64,000 bases of DNA, from positions 1,755-65,754 of the forward strand of contig CAAEFF010000183.1 of assembly GCA_900755085.1 (NCBI GenBank). Direction: 5' to 3'. A program made the translations under genes and the position numbers. The notes beneath the pieces were generated by a model, which saw only the letters and a program-made list of their open reading frames with translations, had not been told where the DNA came from and ran no database searches. Positions 40,451 through 63,194 of this stretch are shown piece after piece. Position 1 is the first letter of the stretch; each line of letters begins with the position of its first letter. This DNA comes from an uncultured Streptococcus sp. (GTDB lineage: Bacteria; Bacillota; Bacilli; Lactobacillales; Streptococcaceae).

Positions 40451-40481
40451 AAAAGAGACAAAGAAGGCAATCTTTGTCTCT
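40451..40481 (-). terminator. Terminator after the histidine kinase
   Basis: AGAGACAAAGA-aggcaa-TCTTTGTCTCT with adjacent A tract. Confidence 0.8.
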
Positions 40482-42192
40482 ATACATGTTCATCAGATGA
40501 TGAAAGGGGTAAAAATAGAGTAATTTTGGTATAGCTATTGGCCTTAGAATCAATCTCCATATGATAGGCTTCGCCAAATTGAAGATGCAATCGTTGGTCC
40601 ACATTTTTCAAGCCAACACCTCCTAAACGAAGAAGGGTTTGGTCTGTTGATTCTGATCGATCAAACCCTCGTCCATTGTCAAAAATCGATACGCAGGCGT
40701 AGTCTCCACTGACTTCAGTTGTCACTCGAATGAGACCTGGCCGATCGATCTCTTTAATGCCATGGTAAATCGCATTTTCCACTAAGGGTTGAAGCACTAA
40801 TTTGGGGAGCTGATAGTCGACCAACCGTTCATCTTCTAGAATTTCATAATTGAGCTTTTCACCATAACGTTGCTTCTGAATGAAAAGATACTGGCGGACA
40901 TGGTCGATTTCATCTCTCAGTAGGATTTGTTCCTGGCCTTGGTTGAGAGCCAGTCGAAAATATTGGGCCAAAGACTTGGTGATGTCGACCACGCGCCGAC
41001 TATCGTTAAACTCTGCCATCCAGACAATCGTATCCAAGGTATTGTAGAGGAAATGCGGATTAATCTGAGCCGAAAGTGCCCGCAACTCGTACCGACGTGC
41101 GTTCTGCTCCTCTTCCTTAACCTGTTGCATGAGGTTATCGATTTGGTCCAACATGGCATTAAAAGCTTGAGCGAGGGCCACCAATTCTGGAGATCCTTTG
41201 GCTGCAGCCCTCACGTGAGCATCTCCTGCTCCAATCCTCAAAATGATAGTCTGAAGGTCTTGTAAGGGTTTGATCCACAAACGCAGAACAAAGCCGATCC
41301 CTATCAAACACATGATCAAAGCTAGTAATCCTAGACCAATGAAAGAGTACAGGAGTTGCGACTGCAGCATCTGAAGACCTTCAAGTGAAGCCACTCCAAT
41401 CAAGGTCCAATCGCTATCTGGAATCGGAACCTGATAGATAAAATTCTGTCCTCCTTTAGCATAGCCATCTGTCACAGCAATATAGGGCTGCATGGCCTGC
41501 ATTTCTTGGCTGGAGGAATAGACCGCCTTTTTAGGATGGTAGACAAACTCATGCTTTTGATTAATGATAAAACTAAAGCCTTGTCTCCCTAGTTGAAGGT
41601 GATCCAAGTAAGCCTGAAGGCTATCGTAGCCAATATCCAAGCGTACGACTCCGAGATTTTGACCAGCCTGATCGACCACTTCTTGGGTAATAGAAACCAC
41701 CCATTTTTCTTTTTCCGAGGTCAAGGATTCCTTTCGAGCTGGCGTCAAAACTGGCATGGCTCTTTCCTTAATCGCCTCTTGATACCAACTTTCATTCATC
41801 ATATCTGAGGAAGTCTGCATGCTGATTTTGGAATCTGTCGCTACCAGACGTCCATCCTTGGTCACCAAGACCGCTGAGACCAGGTCCGGATCCGTTTCTA
41901 TCATCGTTCGCATCAAGTGTTGAACCGTTTCTTGATCCGCACTCTTGTCTTGGGCAAATTGGCGAACAGCCTGTTCCTTGCTAAGCACCGTTGTCGTCTG
42001 CTTTAATTTTTTTAGATAAGAGGTGATAAACTGACTGCTTTGATCGATACTATTTCTTGTCGTCCGTTCCGTTAGCTGGCGGATCGTACCTGAACTCGTT
42101 TGATAGTAAAGGCTACCGATGAGACCAAAAAGTAGGAGAATGAAGAGAAAAAAGTAGAGGACCAGCTGAATCAGCAAGGGATATCGTTTCAT
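40480..42192 (-). CDS. YesM-like sensor histidine kinase (Cache + HAMP; pneumococcal HK09-like)
   Basis: AQINPHFLYNTL, QPLVENAIYHG, DNGRG, GVGLKNV; two TM segments. Confidence 0.92.
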   Translation of the reverse strand: MKRYPLLIQLVLYFFLFILLLFGLIGSLYYQTSSGTIRQLTERTTRNSIDQSSQFITSYLKKLKQTTTVLSKEQAVRQFAQDKSADQETVQHLMRTMIETDPDLVSAVLVTKDGRLVATDSKISMQTSSDMMNESWYQEAIKERAMPVLTPARKESLTSEKEKWVVSITQEVVDQAGQNLGVVRLDIGYDSLQAYLDHLQLGRQGFSFIINQKHEFVYHPKKAVYSSSQEMQAMQPYIAVTDGYAKGGQNFIYQVPIPDSDWTLIGVASLEGLQMLQSQLLYSFIGLGLLALIMCLIGIGFVLRLWIKPLQDLQTIILRIGAGDAHVRAAAKGSPELVALAQAFNAMLDQIDNLMQQVKEEEQNARRYELRALSAQINPHFLYNTLDTIVWMAEFNDSRRVVDITKSLAQYFRLALNQGQEQILLRDEIDHVRQYLFIQKQRYGEKLNYEILEDERLVDYQLPKLVLQPLVENAIYHGIKEIDRPGLIRVTTEVSGDYACVSIFDNGRGFDRSESTDQTLLRLGGVGLKNVDQRLHLQFGEAYHMEIDSKANSYTKITLFLPLSSSDEHV

Positions 42193-42932
42193 TCATGCTC
42201 TCCTTTTTTGTACTGCCTTGGTGTCACCCCAACCACCTGCTTAAAGCGTTGAGAAAAATAGTTCATATCTTCAAAACCAACCTGATCGGCAATCTCATAA
42301 ATCTTTAAATCTGTCGTGAGAAGTAAGAGTTGAGCCTTCTTCATTCGCTCTTGGATGAGATACTCTTGAAAAGGAAGTCCCAATTTTTTCTTGATCAATA
42401 CACTTAGATACGAGGCACTGAAACCAAGTTGGTAGGCTAAATCCTTTAGGGTTAACTGAGGATCTGCTAAACGAGCATGAATGGCTTCTTCCAACTCTGT
42501 CGAATAACCATGGCTGACCAAATTTTCGACTTGCGCCTTCTTTCGCTCTTTGTCTAGCTTTCCTTTCACCTTGGCTAACATCTCTTCAATATCATCTTTT
42601 GAGAAAGGCTTCAGCAAATAATCATCTGCACCTAACTTGATGGCTTTCCTCGCAAACTCAAAGTCATCATAACCTGTCAAAAAAATGATATGACAAGATG
42701 GAGATTGCTCTTTAACGAGATGGGCCAGATCCAAGCCATTCATTTGTGGCATATTGATATCGGTTAGAAGGATGTCGGCTGGTTGCTCTTGAAACTTCTT
42801 CCAGGCCTCACGTCCATTTTCTGCCTGATTGATGACAGTCATTCCAAACTGTTCATAGTCGACCAAGGAAGTCAGTCCTTGCCGAATCAGCTCTTCATCT
42901 TCCACAATCATGATCGCGTACATGTCTTTCAC
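42189..42932 (-). CDS. YesN-like response regulator with AraC HTH (RR09-like)
   Basis: VEDE, TDINMP, YLLKP; C-terminal IADQVGFEDMNYFSQRFK. Confidence 0.92.
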   Translation of the reverse strand: MKDMYAIMIVEDEELIRQGLTSLVDYEQFGMTVINQAENGREAWKKFQEQPADILLTDINMPQMNGLDLAHLVKEQSPSCHIIFLTGYDDFEFARKAIKLGADDYLLKPFSKDDIEEMLAKVKGKLDKERKKAQVENLVSHGYSTELEEAIHARLADPQLTLKDLAYQLGFSASYLSVLIKKKLGLPFQEYLIQERMKKAQLLLLTTDLKIYEIADQVGFEDMNYFSQRFKQVVGVTPRQYKKGEHE

Positions 42933-42981
42933 CTACTTGTTTTTGCTATACTTATTATAGCAAATTATGAGCTGAATTGTC

Positions 42982-44103
42982 TCAGACATAGTCCAATAAA
43001 TAACCGTAGCCTTTTTCTTTCATTTCTGCTTTGGGAATGAAGGTGATAGACAAACTATTGATGCAATAGCGGAGCCCACCTTTTCCCTTGGGACCATCTG
43101 TAAAGACATGGCCTAGATGAGAATTTCCCACACGGCTCCGAACTTCTGTCCGAGTCATATTAAAACTCTTGTCCTCCTTATAGACCGCCACATCAGGACT
43201 AATCGGCCGACTGAAACTTGGCCAACCACAGCCAGAATCAAATTTATCCTTAGAGGAGAAGAGGGGCTCACCGGTCACGACATCTACATAAATACCAGCA
43301 TCAAACTGATCCCAGTAACGATTGGAGAAGGCTCGTTCGGTATCATTTTTTTGTGTCACCGCATACTCTTCAGGAGATAACTTCTTTTTGATCTCCTCAT
43401 CACTCGGCTTGGAGTAGCGGCTTGCATCAATCACTGGATAAGAAGCTTGATTGACATCGATATGACAGTACCCATTTGGATGTTTCTTTAGATAATCCTG
43501 GTGGTAGTCCTCAGCCTTGATGAAATTGGTCAGTGGCTCTTTTTCCACTGCTAACGGTTTGTCGTATTTTTTTGCTTCTTCTTCAAAGACTTGGTTAATG
43601 GTTGGAAGGTCTTCTTGGGAGACATAATAGACACCTGTTCGGTATTGAGTCCCTTGATCATTTCCTTGACGATTCTTCGATGTGGGGTCGATAATTCGGA
43701 AATAGTGCAGGAGCAATTCTTTCAGAGATACCTTCTTGACATTGTAAGTGATGTGAACTGTTTCAGCATGGCCTGTTTGAGGGACCAATTCATACTTGGT
43801 TGTATCTCCCTTCCCATTGGCGTAGCCTGATACAGCATCAATCACACCTGGAACACGGGAGAAATATTCCTCTACGCCCCAGAAGCAACCACCAGCCAAA
43901 TAAATTTCGCGCTGATCCTTTGGATCAACTTTTTCATTTGTTTTCTTTTTGACTACTGGAGTCTGACTCATCGATGCTTTTTTAATCATCTCAGTGCTTG
44001 TTTCTGATTGATCCATTCCATTTGATCCCTTACTAAAGAAAAAGAAACCAATCGATAATAAGCCAATGAGAAGGATAGCAAACACTTTCCATTTTGTTTC
44101 CAT
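42982..44103 (-). CDS. msrAB: Membrane-anchored bifunctional methionine sulfoxide reductase MsrAB
   Basis: N-terminal TM; MsrA GGCFWG and YHQDY; MsrB GCGWPSF, HLGHVF, RYCINS. Confidence 0.96.
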
Positions 44104-44114
44104 TGTCTATCTCC

Positions 44115-44678
44115 TTACTGCATGTTCTCTAGGGTCTTGAGGATATCCTCTTTATTCATATAGCCGATATGACTCTTCGATAAAGTCCCATCACTATTGA
44201 TAAAGAGTGCCGATGGATAAGACCGAATCCCATATTCTTTGAGCAAATCTCCTTTATTATCCAGCAAGACCGGGAAATCCTTGTAATCCAAAGACTGATA
44301 CCAGTTTTTGAAATCTGCTGCTGATTTTTCACCATTAAAGGTTGGAGCTACAACGGATAAAACCACGTAATCCTTACCTGCCTCTTCTTTTGCCAACTCA
44401 TTGGTATCCTCTAATGTCGATAGACAAATAGAGCACCAGGAAGCCCAAAATTTGAGGTAAACTTTCTTCCCTTTGTAATCAGATAAGCGGTAGGTCTTGC
44501 CATCCACTCCTTGCAGGCTAAACTCCTTCACTTTCTTGCCAGATGGTTGCCTAGCCCCAGCTTTGGCTGTTTGTTGGCTCATGTTCTTATTGGAAGTGGC
44601 CATTCCTTGGCTCGAACAAGCGCCCAGAAGTCCAGCGCATACAAATCCAGTAGCTACTAAAGCTAATTTTTTCATCAT
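44115..44678 (-). CDS. TlpA/Etrx1-like thioredoxin lipoprotein
   Basis: Lipobox LGAC; WASWCSIC active site; cis-Pro SYP; start at 44678 after GAGGTG. Confidence 0.92.
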   Translation of the reverse strand: MMKKLALVATGFVCAGLLGACSSQGMATSNKNMSQQTAKAGARQPSGKKVKEFSLQGVDGKTYRLSDYKGKKVYLKFWASWCSICLSTLEDTNELAKEEAGKDYVVLSVVAPTFNGEKSAADFKNWYQSLDYKDFPVLLDNKGDLLKEYGIRSYPSALFINSDGTLSKSHIGYMNKEDILKTLENMQ

Positions 44679-44800
44679 TATCACCTCTTTAAACAAGGAG
44701 AAAGTCATCCTCATATAACTTAGAATGCAGACAAACTTTTTTTAACATAAAACAACCTAAGTAGTGCTATAAACATAGAATGAGAAAGCATATTAGGTAC

Positions 44801-44974
44801 ATTGAAATACACACTGAAACTTTCCGCTGTGAGAAAAGTGTTAGAAACATAAATGTTTCTAACACCCGGGAGTTTTGGAACTTCAGGGCCAAAACTAAGT
44901 CATGGAACTTCTTCGAAGTTCGCTGACGTCCGTCCTCACCTAAGGAAAGTTTCTAAGATGACGTTGTCTTCAAT
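44801..44974. repeat. Multi-branched structured intergenic element (family B)
   Basis: Closing stem GAAACTTTCC 44816-25 / GGAAAGTTTC 44944-53; GTGAG/CTCAC; three internal hairpins. Confidence 0.7.
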
Positions 44975-45009
44975 CTGAGTCATCCTCAGATGACCTCTCC
45001 CTTCTTTCA

Positions 45010-45330
45010 TTAGTTGTCTGATTTCATTTCCGATGAGTTGCTCGTATCCTCCTTCATACTAGAGTCGCTAGAGTTCATCTCATCTTTTTTCATATCGTCC
45101 TTCATTTCAGAACTGCTATCGGACATCATTGATGAATCTTTCTTGTCCTCTTTTTTCATTTTATCATCGGACATGGACGAATCCTTCATGTCGTCCTTCT
45201 TCATATCGTCCTTCTTCATCATGCTACTATTGTCCATTTTTTTCATATCTGAATCTGATTTCTGTCCAGAACAAGCTGCTAAAGTGACGATGCTAAGTGT
45301 AGCAATGGAAAGTGCAAGAATTTTTTTCAT
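45010..45330 (-). CDS. Methionine-rich low-complexity lipoprotein with MKKDD-like repeats
   Basis: AAGGAG RBS; signal peptide with LAAC lipobox (Cys20); 15 Met in the 86 following residues. Confidence 0.88.
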   Translation of the reverse strand: MKKILALSIATLSIVTLAACSGQKSDSDMKKMDNSSMMKKDDMKKDDMKDSSMSDDKMKKEDKKDSSMMSDSSSEMKDDMKKDEMNSSDSSMKEDTSNSSEMKSDN

Positions 45331-45356
45331 GATTTTTCTCCTTTAATCCTTTAAGA

Positions 45357-46067
45357 TTAGTGAAACAGGGATGCGAGGCTATTAAGATTTCCCAGCATCA
45401 GCAAGATACCCATCAAGATGATGAGGGCACCACCAATTTTTTTCAAGGTTCCCATATGGGGCTTGAGTTTAGCAAAATGTTGTAGAACCCAGCTAGAAGC
45501 CAGAGCCAAGACTAAGAAGGGTAGCGCCAATCCCAATGTATAGACCAGCATCAGGAAAGCACCTTGTAAAGCACCATCTCCTCCAGAAGCGGCAATGGCT
45601 AGAACAGAGCTCAAAACTGGTCCGACACAAGGGGTCCAACCAAAACTGAAGGTGACCCCTATCAGAAAAGCATTGAAGAATTCATTGCGTTTTTCGTCCT
45701 TCTTCAGTTGGATACTCTTTTGTTTTTGGAGTTGCTGAAGATTGATGAGGCCCATCTGATGGATTCCCAATAAGATGACAACCCCTCCTAGCAGATAGCG
45801 AAACCATGGAGCATAGAGTACCTGACCAAGGGCCCCTGCACCGTATCCTAGAATCAGGAAAACAGTTGATAGACCTGCGATAAAACAAAGAGTCTTGACC
45901 AGGCCGTACCAAGAAATTTCTCTTCCAAAAATCCGAACAGTTTTCACACGCTCAGAATCCAATAGAATCCCTACATAGACTGGCATCAGTGGCAAAATAC
46001 ACGGGGAGAAAAAGGATAGAACTCCCGCTAAGAATACTGAAATGGAAAACAGGCTATTTTCAATCAT
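45357..46067 (-). CDS. ccdA: CcdA/DsbD-type membrane electron transporter
   Basis: SFFSPCILP and GWTPCVGP; start MIENS at 46067 after GGAGG. Confidence 0.95.
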   Translation of the reverse strand: MIENSLFSISVFLAGVLSFFSPCILPLMPVYVGILLDSERVKTVRIFGREISWYGLVKTLCFIAGLSTVFLILGYGAGALGQVLYAPWFRYLLGGVVILLGIHQMGLINLQQLQKQKSIQLKKDEKRNEFFNAFLIGVTFSFGWTPCVGPVLSSVLAIAASGGDGALQGAFLMLVYTLGLALPFLVLALASSWVLQHFAKLKPHMGTLKKIGGALIILMGILLMLGNLNSLASLFH

Positions 46068-46230
46068 TTCAACTACCTCCCTTACTTTCTGATACCAGTA
46101 TAAAGAAAAAATCCCTCTAAAAATAGAGAGATTGATAAGCAAAAACTTGAATTTGATTAGAAGGTGAATCTTCCTATCTGCCAACTCTACCTCGTACTTT
46201 CAAGTATGAGACTGATCTAGCAAGATACTT

Positions 46231-47313
46231 CTACTTCTTCTTCAAATAATCAATAGCGTCTTGAAGGGTTTTGACGGGTACGATTTTCATCTTCGAATGA
46301 ATTTGTTTTGCTGCTTCTTTAGCGGTTTCATAGTTTGATTTAGCCTTTGGATTGGCTTTCTTTTCTTCTTTAGAAACTGGGTTATTAGGGGCGAAGAAGA
46401 TTTCTGCTCCTTCTTTATCTGCTGCGACGACTTTCTTGTCAATCCCACCGATATCGCCAACCGTTCCATCTTGGTTAATGGTTCCTGTCCCAGCAATATG
46501 ACGTCCCTGACGAAGATCTGGATCCGCCACTTGGGTGTAGATGGCTAGGCTAAACATCATGCCGGCACTTGGGCCACCGATGCCAGCTGTCGCAAACTGG
46601 ACAGGAACATCGCCTTTGGCTTCCGTCCGGTCGATCAGGCTAATCCCGATTCCGTTTTTCCCATTGGTTAATTTGATGATCTTCCCATCTGCGGTCTTGG
46701 TTTGTCCATCCTCAATATAGGTGACCGAAACGGGATCGCCAATTTTTTGAGACCCAACATAGTCAATCAATTCTTTGGAACTCTTAAAGGTCTTGCCATT
46801 CACTCCGGTTACGGTATCCGCAATATTCAAGACTCCTTTAAAGGTCGAGTCATCTGCCACCTGCATGACATAGACTCCTAGAAAGTCCATCTGGGTTTCT
46901 TTGCCAGCTGTCTTCAATCCTTGGTAGATGGCCATATTTTGCGAGGTTTCCATATAGAATTGGTTGATTCGCGTGAATTCTTGACTCGAACTACCACCGG
47001 TCATATCCTTGGCAGAATAGATGTCTGTAAAAGGCGTTGCCCAAGCATAGATCAAATCAGCCGGAGTTGCTTCTTTCACTGCTACGGTCACAAAATCATA
47101 GGTTCCTGGCTTGGTATCCGCTTTTCCATCAACGGTCATCACTGTCCGAATATCTTCGGCCGTTCCCGGCATCTCAATATAATAGGGAAGGCGAATCACA
47201 AAAGCAGCTAGCAAGAGGAGCAAGAAAAGAACTCCTGCAATCGGCCATCGGTATTCTTTCAACCGCCCTTTTTTCTTTTTAGGGGTCAAGCTTGGTTTAT
47301 TCGCTTGGGTCAT
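46231..47313 (-). CDS. sepM: SepM/YlbL PDZ + Lon-like (S16) membrane serine protease
   Basis: TM, PDZ, IGGPSAG, AGTGTI...GGIDKK. Confidence 0.85.
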
Positions 47314-49403: not shown

Positions 49404-49526
49404 ATAGTTCCTCATTTATAGACATTTTAGAATTGATTATACTCTTTTTTCAATCAAAATCAAGTCTTTTCATTCGTTTTCAACTGAATTTTTCTCTTGC
49501 AAAAAGGTTTCGTTTTTGATAAACTA

Positions 49527-49551
49527 TATGTAACTTTTAAAACGTTACATA
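49527..49551. promoter_or_regulatory. Putative HdiR operator
   Basis: TATGTAAC-ttttaaaac-GTTACATA inverted repeat directly upstream of the AGGAGA RBS. Confidence 0.75.
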
Positions 49552-49562
49552 GGAGAGCTGAC

Positions 49563-50240
49563 ATGTTTGATGCAAAAAAACTAAAAGAAAGACGCCTAGA
49601 AAAAGGCTTGACTCAAGCTGATGTCTATGAGGATCTCAAGATTTCTCGCAAGACTTACTCTAGTTGGGAGAATGGCTTGGCGGAGCCACACGAAAAAAAT
49701 CTCAGGAGGTTGGCCAAGCGCCTCTCCGTTAAAGAGGACTACTTTATTAACAAAGACTCCGCACTCTACACCTACCCTTTATTAACCCCACCTCATCAAA
49801 AGAAAGTCGACCAGTTAGCCAGCCAGTTATTGGAACAGCAACAAAAAGTTGTTTCCTTGACGGCCTATAAGGTTCTTTCGATTGAGTTGGCAGCTGGTTT
49901 GGGACATACCTTTTATGACAATGAGACCGACTATGAAACCGTCTATTTTGACCAAGAAATCCAACACGACTTTGCCTCTTGGGTATCCGGAAATTCGATG
50001 GAACCTCTCTATCCCAACGGCTCTGTTGCCCTCATGAAGCAGACCGGATTTGACTACGATGGGGCGGTCTATGCCCTCATGTGGAACGGGAAGACCTATA
50101 TAAAAAAAGTCTATCGGGAGGCTGAGGGCTTGCGCCTAGAATCCATCAACCCTGACTACGATGATTTATTCGCTCCTTATGAGGACGAGCCAAAAATTGT
50201 CGGCATTGTGGTCGGGCATTTCCTACCGCTTGAGGTGTAA
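49563..50240 (+). CDS. hdiR: HdiR-like XRE HTH + S24 self-cleaving repressor
   Basis: Cro/CI HTH; Ala-Gly site (LAAG); catalytic Ser (GNSMEP) and Lys (YIKK). Confidence 0.85.
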   Translation: MFDAKKLKERRLEKGLTQADVYEDLKISRKTYSSWENGLAEPHEKNLRRLAKRLSVKEDYFINKDSALYTYPLLTPPHQKKVDQLASQLLEQQQKVVSLTAYKVLSIELAAGLGHTFYDNETDYETVYFDQEIQHDFASWVSGNSMEPLYPNGSVALMKQTGFDYDGAVYALMWNGKTYIKKVYREAEGLRLESINPDYDDLFAPYEDEPKIVGIVVGHFLPLEV

Positions 50241-50242
50241 GT

Positions 50243-51655
50243 ATGCTGTTTGATTATTCACGTGAGCCTCATTCTGATATTGCTTTTGTGGATATGAAAA
50301 GTTTTTATGCTAGTTGTGAGTGTGTCCGTCTGGGGCTCAACCCCTTAACGACTTCTCTGTGCGTCATGAGCCGAAGCGACAATTCTGCTGGCCTGATTTT
50401 GGCTAGCTCCCCCGTTTTCAAACAGGTCTTTGGCAAGAGGAATGTTAGCCGGAGCTACGACCTGCCTTTTGATCTCAAGACCAGAAAATTCAATAGCTAC
50501 GTCGCAAAAAAACAAGGATTGCCGACGGATCCATCCTTTGTTTCCTACATTGAATCCTGGGCCAAGAGGACCCTGATTGTGCCGCCACGCATGAATGCCT
50601 ACATTCAGGTCAATATGGAAATTCAGAAGGTTTTTCAAGAGTTTGCGGCACCGGATGATATTTTCCCTTACTCGATTGACGAAGGCTTTATCGATCTGAC
50701 TTCTTCCTTAAATTATTTTATTCCAGATTCTTTCATTCCTCGCAAAGAAAAACTGGACCTTCTCTCTGCCAGGATCCAAAAAAGGATCTGGAAGGAAACT
50801 GGCATCTACTCTACAGTTGGCCTCAGTAACGCCAATCCCCTTCTTGCCAAGCTAGCCTTGGACAATGAAGCCAAGCATTGTCGAAATATGAGAGCCAATT
50901 GGTCTTATGAAGATGTAGAAAGCAAGGTTTGGAAACTGCCCCAACTTACTGATTTTTGGGGCATTGGGCGTCGCACTGAAAAACGATTGCAAGGGATCGG
51001 GATCACGTCGATTAAAGAACTGGCTCAGGCTCATCCAGATCTCTTAAAGAAAGAATTCGGAGTCACGGGGCTTCAACTCTGGTTCCATGCCCATGGCATT
51101 GATGAAAGCAATGTCCACAAACCTTATCGTCCGAAGTCACGTGGCATTGGCAACTCTCAAATCTTGCCTTATGACTACCATCTACAAGCTGACATTGAGC
51201 TGGTGTTTCGTGAGATGGCTGAACAGGTGGCTATTCGCTTGCGACGGAAAAAAAAGAAGACCCAGCTGGTCTCCATTCATGCCTCCTACTCCAAAATTGA
51301 GGGACTTCCGTCCATTCACTGCCAGCAAAAGATTGAACCCACCCAATCCACCAAGGTTTTATCCGATACAGTTCTACGACTCTTTCGCTCCAAATATGAA
51401 GGAGGAGCCATTCGGCAGATTGGCGTTTTTTATGGCGAACTTGTCGAGGAGTCTCTGCAACTCTTTTCTCTCTTTGATGACCCAGTAGCCCTGGAAAAAG
51501 AGGAAAAACTCCAGCAGACCATTGACCGCATTCGGGACCAATTTGGCTTTACCTCTCTTCAGAAAGGCTCCTCACTACTAGAAAACTCACGCGCCATTGC
51601 ACGCAGTAAACTAACAGGCGGACATTCCGCAGGAGGCTTAGATGGATTAACATGA
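50243..51655 (+). CDS. umuC: Y-family DNA polymerase, UmuC/UvrX-like
   Basis: DMKSFYAS, YSIDE, WGIG HhH motif. Confidence 0.92.
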   Translation: MLFDYSREPHSDIAFVDMKSFYASCECVRLGLNPLTTSLCVMSRSDNSAGLILASSPVFKQVFGKRNVSRSYDLPFDLKTRKFNSYVAKKQGLPTDPSFVSYIESWAKRTLIVPPRMNAYIQVNMEIQKVFQEFAAPDDIFPYSIDEGFIDLTSSLNYFIPDSFIPRKEKLDLLSARIQKRIWKETGIYSTVGLSNANPLLAKLALDNEAKHCRNMRANWSYEDVESKVWKLPQLTDFWGIGRRTEKRLQGIGITSIKELAQAHPDLLKKEFGVTGLQLWFHAHGIDESNVHKPYRPKSRGIGNSQILPYDYHLQADIELVFREMAEQVAIRLRRKKKKTQLVSIHASYSKIEGLPSIHCQQKIEPTQSTKVLSDTVLRLFRSKYEGGAIRQIGVFYGELVEESLQLFSLFDDPVALEKEEKLQQTIDRIRDQFGFTSLQKGSSLLENSRAIARSKLTGGHSAGGLDGLT

Positions 51656-52023
51656 TCGACCGTTCTTATCTCCCTTATCAATCCGCCCGCGAATTTCAAG
51701 ACCGTGGCATGGCCAAATGGGCCGGCTTCTTTTTATCCGAGCACACAACCGCCCTGCATACAAAAGAAATTGACCGTAGTCAACTCTACGTTCTTCCTCT
51801 TTCTGAACAGATCCAGCTCCTCGAGCAGGCCTTCCAACAAGAAACGACGATCTCGATCACGACTCTAGAGGGGAATCAATTTGCAACCTACACAGGTTGG
51901 ATTCACACCTTATCTGCCTCTGAGCTTCTTCTCAAAAGCGAGGACCACTACCACCGACTCCTTCTGACCTCTATCATTTTTATTGAATCTGAGGGAACAG
52001 CCTATGAAACCTATTCAAACTAA
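51652..52023 (+). CDS. YolD-like accessory protein of the mutagenesis cassette
   Basis: DRGMAKWAGFFLSEH motif; overlaps umuC stop. Confidence 0.75.
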   Translation: MIDRSYLPYQSAREFQDRGMAKWAGFFLSEHTTALHTKEIDRSQLYVLPLSEQIQLLEQAFQQETTISITTLEGNQFATYTGWIHTLSASELLLKSEDHYHRLLLTSIIFIESEGTAYETYSN

Positions 52024-52330
52024 ACACGAGTTACAATTTGATTATTTTTCAGAGAATTACCACCAATTTGAGACAGACTTTTACAAGTGGGCAGCTACTT
52101 CTACACCACTCGTCTTTTTAGAAGACGATATCCTCTACTCTATGGCCACAGGCCAGCGTAATTATTTTCGTCTTCACCACACCAAAAGTCGAGACCATCG
52201 AGACCATTATTTCTACTTTAAGGTTTCCACTCTTTCCCAATCACCCCTGACACGTATTTACACTTATACAGGACATCACTTACAAAAACTAGATCCTCAT
52301 CAGACAGAGAAAAAGGATAGCTTGATTTGA
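52004..52330 (+). CDS. Small conserved protein, fourth gene of hdiR-umuC cassette (DUF5960-like)
   Basis: Overlapping start MKPIQ after GAGGG; DYFSENY..FE.DFYK motif. Confidence 0.7.
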   Translation: MKPIQTKHELQFDYFSENYHQFETDFYKWAATSTPLVFLEDDILYSMATGQRNYFRLHHTKSRDHRDHYFYFKVSTLSQSPLTRIYTYTGHHLQKLDPHQTEKKDSLI

Positions 52331-62401: not shown

Positions 62402-63157
62402 TTAATATAAATCTTCCAAACTTCTATATTCAACGACTTCATTTTTAATAACATTTTTTTCAAATTCAAAATGGTTAAGTGGGTTATCAATCAATACCAA
62501 CCTTGGAATATCGTCGAGATTGGTGACTAGAGACAGAATAAAATCTGATTGATATTCCTTAGCTTTCTCAAATTCTTTGGAGGTCAAACGAATACGTCCT
62601 TTAGGTTTTCGGATACCTTTAACCTCAGCAAGGTATGAATGTTCTTGAACATCTACTTGGAAATCATATCCATCACCATAAAGACGGGCATCAGTCAATT
62701 GGCCACCTTGAAATTTTTCTTCCTTATCAAAATGGTGTATGAAATAATTCTCTGCTTCCATTCCCGTTTCTTGTAGACGTTTGAATTTCGTTCGAATGAT
62801 TGGTTTTTCAACGATGGTTATGCCTGTTTTCTTCCCTTCACTCGCAAGCAACATTTTAACGATTTCTGCAAAACTGTGAACATCCTCATTTCCAAACATC
62901 GTGTCAATAAAGTCTTTTCGAAAACGGTAGACTTCAGCTTTTTGCCACCAACCTTTTCGATTGTTATCAAAATAGGGGTCGAATAAATCCATTCTATTTT
63001 TGACTACACCCGTTGTTTCTGCAACGCCTAAAGAAACTATGTAACGATAAAACTCAGATTTACTAGAGCATTGAAATTCCTTTATAAAAGTATCATCAAA
63101 CTTAGCAAGACCATAGCCAATCAAGTTTAACAATTCATAGTGAGGGTGTTTAGACAT
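62402..63157 (-). CDS. DUF3883/NOV-C-like PD-(D/E)XK nuclease-domain protein
   Basis: TGMEAE...GDGYDF...LAEVKG...LTSKE pattern; start MSKHP at 63157 after GGAG; own TGGTATAAT. Confidence 0.8.
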   Translation of the reverse strand: MSKHPHYELLNLIGYGLAKFDDTFIKEFQCSSKSEFYRYIVSLGVAETTGVVKNRMDLFDPYFDNNRKGWWQKAEVYRFRKDFIDTMFGNEDVHSFAEIVKMLLASEGKKTGITIVEKPIIRTKFKRLQETGMEAENYFIHHFDKEEKFQGGQLTDARLYGDGYDFQVDVQEHSYLAEVKGIRKPKGRIRLTSKEFEKAKEYQSDFILSLVTNLDDIPRLVLIDNPLNHFEFEKNVIKNEVVEYRSLEDLY

Positions 63158-63194
63158 AACTTTCTCCATCAATAGATATTGATTTTATTATACC

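Follow-up and report, generated by a model that had tools for sequence, protein, structure and literature searches.

The closest described relatives of the operon considered here are the CcdA1-Etrx1-MsrAB2/TCS09 (CTM) system of pneumococci, the CcdA1-Sgo_1177-MsrAB pathway of Streptococcus gordonii and the ccdA-trx-msrAB-modRS genes of Fusobacterium. Electron flow from CcdA through a thioredoxin to the methionine sulfoxide reductase MsrAB is reported as established in S. gordonii and the pneumococcus, and the TCS09/YesMN/ModRS regulators have been linked, in streptococci as in Fusobacterium, to survival of oxidative stress. In those parts of the published accounts that were available to us, the three systems are described without a methionine (Met)-rich gene, and we found no sensing mechanism for their kinases there. 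Met-rich proteins linked to Met sulfoxide reductases are known from elsewhere. MrpX of Azospira suillum, encoded with YedYZ (MsrPQ) and SigF/NrsF, is specific for hypochlorous acid (HOCl), is oxidised by it and re-reduced in vivo, and is associated with a mild fitness defect (Melnyk 2015, PMC4436054), and a Brucella bcrXQP mutant is sensitive to HOCl but not to H2O2, a phenotype reported for the triple mutant only (PMC8315932). In Escherichia coli, the kinase HprS (YedV/HypV) needs conserved periplasmic Met for its HOCl response, their oxidation being without direct proof (bioRxiv 10.1101/2021.09.09.459708). Here we describe a locus in a 64,000-nt stretch (the window) of contig CAAEFF010000183.1, from the S. 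parasanguinis-like genome of an uncultured Streptococcus (GCA_900755085.1), whose minus strand carries ccdA, a gene for a Met-rich lipoprotein, trx, msrAB and the genes of a response regulator and a histidine kinase in one operon. The lipoprotein may be a recyclable sacrificial target for immune oxidants of the bleach type; the kinase bears a conserved Met motif, which is the more surprising of the two leads.

The first-pass annotation had singled out a 106-residue gene between ccdA and a thioredoxin with a WCSIC motif, with its own ribosome-binding site (RBS) and a LAAC lipobox, and had described the mature product as Met-rich, built from M/K/D/S/E and probably disordered. All of this was recovered (Table 1): an AGGAG precedes the start codon, the lipobox ends in Cys20, and the 86 residues following that cysteine hold 15 Met, zero aromatic residues and zero further Cys, with Ser at 25%, Asp at 22%, Lys at 21% and Met at 17% and with the repeats MKKDD (twice), MKDSS and MKKDE. 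AlphaFold, working from an alignment of six sequences, returned a local confidence score (pLDDT) of 55 and a predicted template-modelling score (pTM) of 0.12, the mature part being modelled as free of secondary structure. With 12 Met among its first 60 mature residues, the protein stands apart from all other predicted lipoproteins of the genome (48 in total), which reach four there at most, and its best named match, at 98% identity, is labelled S. parasanguinis.

By description, the protein resembles the pentapeptide MXKDX family TIGR02953, which comprises small proteins with a signal peptide and imperfect MxKDx repeats: three MxKDx and one MxKEx are present, and ESM Atlas clusters named pentapeptide MXKDX repeat protein match it at 0.96. 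The proposed comparison with the MXKDX model was thus borne out for the repeats but not for the score, which at 14.4 bits lies well under the cut-off of 41; the best of 11 free Met lipoproteins, at 32.8 bits, also stays below it. Formal membership was rejected on this ground, and no Pfam family was matched. As to the view that the gene is uncharacterised in streptococci, no functional study was located in a search that left subscription journals mostly outside, and two reviews (PMC13488963, PMC8076862) and PMC2909906 hold nothing further about it in the sections available, but Spaf_0569, the orthologue in S. parasanguinis FW213, had already been annotated as ‘pentapeptide MXKDX repeat protein’ in 2012 (PMC3329508).

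Comparison of 82 distinct, mutually related free proteins (7145 mature residues) revealed a Met content of 18.2%, against a total of 10 Leu, Ile, Val, Phe, Trp and Tyr residues, no His and a single Cys. Met recurs mostly with a period of five; of 1216 intervals, 31 are MxxM, 150 are MM and none is MxM. The corresponding genes contain 1298 ATG codons and two Ile, Leu or Val codons that are one change away from ATG. Retention of Met together with near-exclusion of other hydrophobic residues suggests that sulfur chemistry, rather than hydrophobicity, is conserved in these proteins, whose mature length varies between 43 and 105 residues.

To follow the gene across genomes, we used a profile (A2) built from six orthologues, which undercounts, so that its positives are a lower bound; it matched in 67 of 301 Streptococcus genomes. 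Linkage to msr genes, on which the first-pass annotation had staked its proposal, held firmly in the best locus of each of the 66 positive genomes besides the window's: msrAB is visible in 64, the two misses being contig ends. Sixty-three of these loci have a stand-alone gene between ccdA and trx (one frameshifted, one ended by a contig edge), and in the other three the repeat forms an N-terminal tail of the same thioredoxin, so that the fused forms add to the linkage. Likewise, of 134 confirmed named loci, the top 80, with S. parasanguinis, S. australis, S. cristatus, S. sanguinis and S. rubneri among the species represented, have ccdA upstream in 80, trx downstream in 79 and msrAB in 78 cases, two being cut by contig ends. 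The kinase is present in 208 of the 301 genomes, including all 67 with the Met gene; the other 93 contain no positive, with the caveat that kin are not independent.

Of ten readable loci that A2 missed in more distant species, eight possess a free gene, at least five Met in a thioredoxin tail, or both; three loci of the mitis type have neither. Three weak off-locus A2 matches (E ~3-6e-6) were seen, with no Met-rich lipoprotein flagged in the two that were retrieved; a search of a protein collection returned just 22 homologues, mostly fragmentary, six of six full-length sequences being missing from that collection; and a plasmid search gave no match. A draw across the phylum found thioredoxin matches in 6 of 400 genomes, and the loci viewed were of other types, with neither a Met tail nor flanking msr, which suggests that the module is patchy. 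Some mitis-group loci (L012, L015, L209, L214 and metagenome cluster 20) have trx-msrAB without an adjacent ccdA, and several genomes of this kind give no kinase match.

Fusion of the repeat to the thioredoxin extends well beyond these genomes and reaches clostridia. Forty of 109 single-domain WC[SP]IC thioredoxins, drawn from 150 representative matches to a query that itself carried a Met tail and therefore biased the count, have at least five Met in the linker, and two of the Met-tailed representatives are named Vallitalea and Peptostreptococcaceae; none of 12 distinct linkers of the WC[GP]PC paralogue exceeds three Met. The window's own thioredoxin has a short linker with two Met, and the longest tails reach 28-31. 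Another Lactobacillales family has a free Met gene (one locus) or Met tails adjoining msrAB, and metagenomes yielded the Met module in 26 of 79 parsed loci (of 80), which represent 17 of 24 clusters; msr accompanies it in 22 of the 26 loci, and the other four lie on short contigs. A tree of 55 thioredoxin domains implies 12 gain or loss changes of the module. In one genome (G299), free gene and thioredoxin tail are near-identical in DNA, and in another (G018) a hybrid thioredoxin begins with the signal peptide of the free Met gene, the expected product of a deletion from one repeat to the other.

Several variants deserve mention in their own right. L279:3213-3836, located between ccdA and a Trx-Msr fusion, encodes a lipoprotein that combines a Met-rich tail with an apparent rhodanese domain (assigned by eye), and P0057 has a rhodanese-like domain inside the thioredoxin linker that resembles it. 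L265:810-1274, which precedes a response regulator-ccdA-trx-msrAB cluster, specifies a 154-residue exported protein whose insert contains 22 Met. Thioredoxin linkers in P0029 and L267 combine Cys-rich, CKGDGTCKEDCEC-like repeats with Met and may bind metal. Only one of the variants seen is rich in His: a thioredoxin tail at L379:1912-2766, where 16 Met occur together with repeated His (MKKHDK).

How does the lipoprotein compare with described Met sinks? Like MrpX, it is small and exported, has approximately 20% Met plus charged residues, is predicted to be unfolded and is encoded beside a Met sulfoxide reductase; like Brucella BcrX, it has MxKDx-like pentapeptides past the signal peptide and belongs to a type of operon linked to HOCl, and its FW213 orthologue bears the MXKDX name. 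Unlike MrpX, it is predicted to be lipid-anchored, comes from a Gram-positive, is associated with CcdA/Trx/MsrAB and a two-component system instead of MsrPQ (YedYZ) and an extracytoplasmic function sigma factor, and its repeat is often fused to a thioredoxin. From BcrX and TIGR02953 it differs in its lipobox, reductase and regulator and in the scores of 14-33 bits that it and its relatives reach (cut-off 41). The likeness to MrpX is one of low complexity, homology not being established, and the available text of the MrpX paper leaves Gram-positives unmentioned (PMC4436054). By analogy, the lipoprotein could work like MrpX and BcrX with another reductase, anchor and regulator, which, if true, would extend MrpX-type sacrificial Met defence to Gram-positive surfaces through a different reductase chain.

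The chemistry narrows the choice of oxidant. For the reaction of Met with HOCl, a rate constant of 3.4 x 10^7 /M/s is given (bioRxiv 10.1101/2021.09.09.459708). For H2O2 we used 1e-2 /M/s, where the preprint prints 2 x 10^2; with either value H2O2 is slower by a factor of 10^5 or more, so that it is unlikely to be a direct target; as a direct substrate it was rejected on kinetics. The earlier proposal of a sacrificial substrate for HOCl or H2O2 therefore survives for HOCl, given the retention of Met and the HOCl-inducibility of orthologous operons, but not for H2O2, given the kinetics and the Brucella phenotype. We consider it an even bet that the lipoprotein serves as a recyclable sacrificial sink for HOCl or chloramines, in which case it would be lipidated, oxidised, recycled and protective. 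The idea of a catalytic shield fared worse: in a rough model with a 20-nm shell and assumed geometry and diffusion, 10^3, 10^4 and 10^5 copies would intercept ~0.4, 4 and 31% of HOCl, which makes a cell-wide shield demanding, and a weak one unless ~10^5 copies per cell are present. Any protection would more probably be confined to the surroundings of the Trx/MsrAB cysteines or be shared within a dense biofilm, and the fused Met tails suggest local protection of the redox enzymes.

Besides this low capacity, a number of observations weigh against a sink. Many relatives do without the gene. An unbiased thioredoxin search of 16 streptococcal loci returned five with a free gene, two with a Met tail and nine with neither, which marks the module as an optional accessory, missing in mitis-group loci, and msr is retained in 46 of 53 metagenome loci that lack it. 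The numbering of the pneumococcal operon leaves no space for the gene. Hypothiocyanous acid (HOSCN), the chief salivary oxidant, is reported to be thiol-specific, and the phenotypes described for the msrAB pathway in S. gordonii (PMC7034828) and Fusobacterium (PMC9239216) are with H2O2. In the strain studied here, an inserted repeat (see below) may uncouple the Met gene from trx-msrAB. Expression is low, too. Spaf_0569 shows 3 and 1 reads per kilobase per million, versus 232 and 173 for ccdA2, and is tabulated under operon 1-18 (PMC3329508), and S. sanguinis SK36 SSA_1116, a 321-bp gene that ccdA and trx flank across gaps of 27 and 70 nt, identical to those in locus L004, and that is equated with the Met-rich gene from position and length alone, has a very low basal value of 22.5 transcripts per million (TPM), next to 5.1 for ccdA, 9.1 for trx, 11.0 for msrAB and 162-166 for ccdA2-sdbB (PMC7674665). 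The gene is thus nearly silent in plain culture in two species. Induction is documented for the orthologous operon: overexpression of the response regulator RR09 strongly induces pneumococcal ccdA1-etrx1-msrAB2 (PMC11034029), the operon is HOCl-induced according to reviews citing Fritsch 2023 (PMC10543277, PMC10715087), and in Fusobacterium trx and ccdA are under positive control by ModR (PMC9239216). Only by analogy would the same apply to the Met-rich gene itself.

Three RNA sequencing runs gave partial matches, mostly below 90% and from other species, that leave the Met gene uncovered, one of the runs (X1) being probably DNA, and the PMC6904348 supplement contained no matching tags. The gene appears to have been overlooked within a well-studied oral streptococcal operon (ssa_1116 and, by numbering, sgo_1178): in its available parts, the S. 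gordonii CcdA1-Sgo_1177-MsrAB paper counts five genes, does not mention 1178 and skips sgo_1178 and ssa_1116 in its figure (PMC7034828).

The second lead lies in the sensor kinase, whose extracytoplasmic domain contains the motif M-x-x-S-x-D-M-M-x-E-x-W-Y. Dereplication at 80% left 36 kinases encoded at msr loci, of which 32 conserve M125, 31 M131, 31 M132 and 27 M146; 30 of the 36 keep at least three of the four, down to 27% identity, and the four columns rank alongside structural Trp, Gly and Asp columns of the alignment. Twenty unlinked loci without msr supplied 18 alignable sensors, more distant and partly redundant, of which 14 have none of the four Met and four have one. Conserved extracytoplasmic Met specific to msr-linked kinases, the pattern expected of a Met-redox sensor, thus occur in 30 of 36 kinases, against 0 of 18 controls with at least two. 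The closest control (L369:5377-7092; 33% identity, no msr in the stretch read) has one Met and adjoins an unrelated 744-residue gene. Kinases of S. mitis, S. oralis and S. pseudopneumoniae have three of the four, and mitis-group orthologues are ~50% identical to the window kinase. A word-seeded search with a clostridial kinase, which may favour the motif and gives no genomic context, yielded 154 homologues. Of the top 120, which include proteins named Fusobacterium, Clostridium, Sporosarcina, Neobacillus and Paenibacillus, all 120 have M131 and M132, 118 have M125 and 107 have M146.

The modelled sensor adopts a dCache fold and matches ligand-binding domains (Foldseek E ~1e-11 to 1e-10), the Met loop being of moderate confidence. 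Amino-acid-binding dCache_1 domains, such as that of Mlp37, share the motif aromatic-x4-R-x-W-Y...Y...D. Relative to Mlp37 and PctA, the window kinase retains the fold, the W-Y pair and the Asp, and their DPRxRPWY is replaced by SDMMxExWY, with the aromatic residue changed to Ser, Arg to Glu and the second Tyr gone. Amino-acid sensing was rejected accordingly. The sharing of these Met by Fusobacterium and mitis-group kinases suggests a Met-redox sensor that is reset by MsrAB, and judged from sequence there is about an equal chance for and against the kinase being a methionine-oxidation switch. Against such a switch count the six of 36 kinases with two or fewer of the Met (one a fragment), the distance and redundancy of the controls and the seeding of the homologue search; the Met cluster might just as well be a Cu(I) site or part of a ligand pocket. 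The resemblance to E. coli HprS lies in an msr-operon kinase with conserved extracytoplasmic Met, proposed as a switch for reactive chlorine species, and in feedback through Msr. HprS is CusS-like and belongs to a different family. The window kinase is of the YesM type with a dCache_1 domain and another motif, and would be a separate solution. No study of Met sensing by a TCS09/ModRS-type kinase was located, again with subscription journals mostly outside the search, and the four Met offer a residue-level candidate answer for the signal input of TCS09/YesMN and ModRS.

Taken together, the two leads could form one circuit. HOCl or chloramine would hit the Met of the kinase pocket, and the Met-oxidised kinase would, through the response regulator, activate the operon promoter; CcdA would pass electrons via the thioredoxin to MsrAB, as in relatives; and MsrAB would repair envelope proteins, re-reduce the lipid-anchored, disordered Met polymer that had served as the sacrificial HOCl or chloramine target, and reset the kinase Met as negative feedback. 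That Firmicutes and Fusobacteria share such a circuit, with a four-Met dCache switch inducing CcdA-Trx-MsrAB, MsrAB resetting it and many lineages adding a Met polymer, is a tentative and, on present evidence, somewhat doubtful generalisation.

Alternatively, the polymer could tune the signal, competing with the kinase Met for oxidant and MsrAB, or contacting the oxidised dCache pocket, and so set the threshold or duration of induction. This would fit the confinement of the gene to kinase-bearing genomes (67 of 67), its small capacity, which suits a regulatory buffer better than a shield, and the accessory Met-oxidised partner that the HprS authors leave open in the available part of their preprint (bioRxiv 10.1101/2021.09.09.459708). 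Yet A2, as a lower bound, finds the kinase without the Met gene in about two thirds of kinase-bearing genomes, and the longest tails suggest selection for capacity, so we rate signal tuning as rather unlikely. Comparably improbable is a role in Cu(I)/Ag(I) handling, with the polymer buffering soft metals, the kinase Met sensing Cu(I) and MsrAB keeping the thioethers reduced for binding. Met-only Cu(I) sites occur in Ctr1, CusF and CueO, and four clustered Met in the sensor pocket would suit Cu(I). Repair of CusF by MsrP under copper stress has also been published; the lack of His and near-lack of Cys, the period of five and the paucity of MxM and MxxM spacings speak rather against it, as do the HOCl induction of the orthologous operon and the redox genes that, in a scan without copper families, are the fixed neighbours at all loci examined. 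Met-motif Cu(I) binders of the Ctr1/CusF/SilE kind have MxM/MxxM clusters, often accompanied by His. A chaperone, hydrophilin-like or redox-gated, that stabilises envelope proteins, or a tether whose tail recruits MsrAB, with Met as sticky residues, would explain the predicted disorder, the high charge, the fusion as a flexible Trx linker in many lineages and the likeness to the yeast hydrophilin Sip18 remarked on in the MrpX paper (PMC4436054); since Leu and Ile would be equally sticky yet are nearly excluded, and Met-less linkers function on the same Trx, we hold it to be unlikely as well. Least plausible by far is a near-neutral by-product of slippage-expanded thioredoxin 5' repeats that gave rise to a free gene by duplication and were then lost on several occasions, because the near-identical G299 copies, the G018 hybrid, the variable length, the 12 gain or loss changes and the low expression that it would account for are set against an intact open reading frame (ORF), lipobox and Met positions across species whose Trx are ~70% identical, and against a single frameshift in 63 loci, in an assembly with all neighbouring genes fragmented too.

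Upstream of ccdA lies a conserved 17-nt box, a candidate binding site for the AraC-type response regulator. With up to three mismatches it occurs in 19 of 26 loci (a whole-locus search that includes some chance matches); it is absent from mitis-type and most clostridial loci, and the copy in the window is the sole exact one among 14 matches in the genome at up to two mismatches. A -10 hexamer without a good -35 element, which a sigma-70 scan did not list, points to a promoter that is likely activator-dependent.

The dispersed repeat mentioned above lies in the 331-nt gap between the Met gene and trx. Like the 17-nt box and the kinase Met, it is absent from the first-pass annotation. It has 47 matches in the window's genome (G000); genome G019 lacks it at the corresponding site, and loci L065, L098 and L099 share the insertion. 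Strongly folded (z = -5.2), with a hairpin at 44838-44865 that leads into a U-run when read on the minus strand, it could attenuate read-through into trx-msrAB. Its score of 45.8 bits against the Rfam family SSRC8_2 lies under the gathering score of 72; this weak likeness suggests that the ‘sRNA’ family may correspond to the dispersed repeat. The repeat family is reminiscent of miniature inverted-repeat transposable elements, its copies usually lying just past terminator hairpins and some having duplicated flanks.

The neighbours of the Met gene were identified with hidden Markov models (HMMs), and ccdA, thioredoxin lipoprotein, membrane MsrAB and a YesN/YesM pair follow in the order of the CTM operon; gene set and order also agree with the S. 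gordonii and Fusobacterium systems, the thioredoxin and kinase families being orthologous. Another gene with an msrA domain is present elsewhere in the genome.

Table 1 Features of the Met-rich lipoprotein operon and its promoter region (positions in the window)
Feature	Position	Strand	Remarks
Conserved 17-nt box, candidate response regulator site	46141..46157	-	upstream of ccdA; by eye, many loci
-10 hexamer TATACT	46097..46102	-	no good -35; same spacing from box across loci
ccdA	45357..46067	-	236 aa, transmembrane electron donor; DsbD_TM, PF02683 69.5 bits
RBS of Met-rich gene, AGGAG	45338..45342	-	7 nt ahead of ATG
Met-rich lipoprotein gene	45010..45330	-	106 aa; LAAC lipobox, Cys20
Dispersed repeat, 264 bp plus 11-bp target duplication (275 bp)	44703..44988		duplications 44703-44713, 44978-44988
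Thioredoxin-like lipoprotein, WCSIC, Etrx1/Sgo_1177 type	44115..44678	-	Redoxin, PF08534 74.9 bits
MsrAB with N-terminal membrane segment	42982..44103	-	PF01625 190 bits, PF01641 158 bits
YesN-type response regulator (receiver + AraC helix-turn-helix)	42189..42923	-	HMM
YesM-type histidine kinase (dCache_1-HAMP-His_kinase-HATPase)	40480..42192	-	HMM
Sensor Met codons	41755..41820	-	M125 41818-41820, M131 41800-41802, M132 41797-41799, M146 41755-41757
Terminator-like hairpin, operon end	40454..40481	-	supported by position; count of such sites at chance level

Directly upstream of the operon, a SepM-family pheromone-processing protease is encoded at 46231-47313 (minus strand) in the window and at this place in parasanguinis-group loci, with different genes in other groups. 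Farther away, window positions 49497-52330 (plus strand) hold a mutagenesis-type cassette composed of a helix-turn-helix/peptidase S24 repressor, an IMS (UmuC/DinB) polymerase, a 123-residue ORF without a Pfam match and DUF5960, and positions 62402-63172 (minus strand) encode a NOV_C (DUF3883-like) domain protein that follows valS in a stretch of lower GC content.

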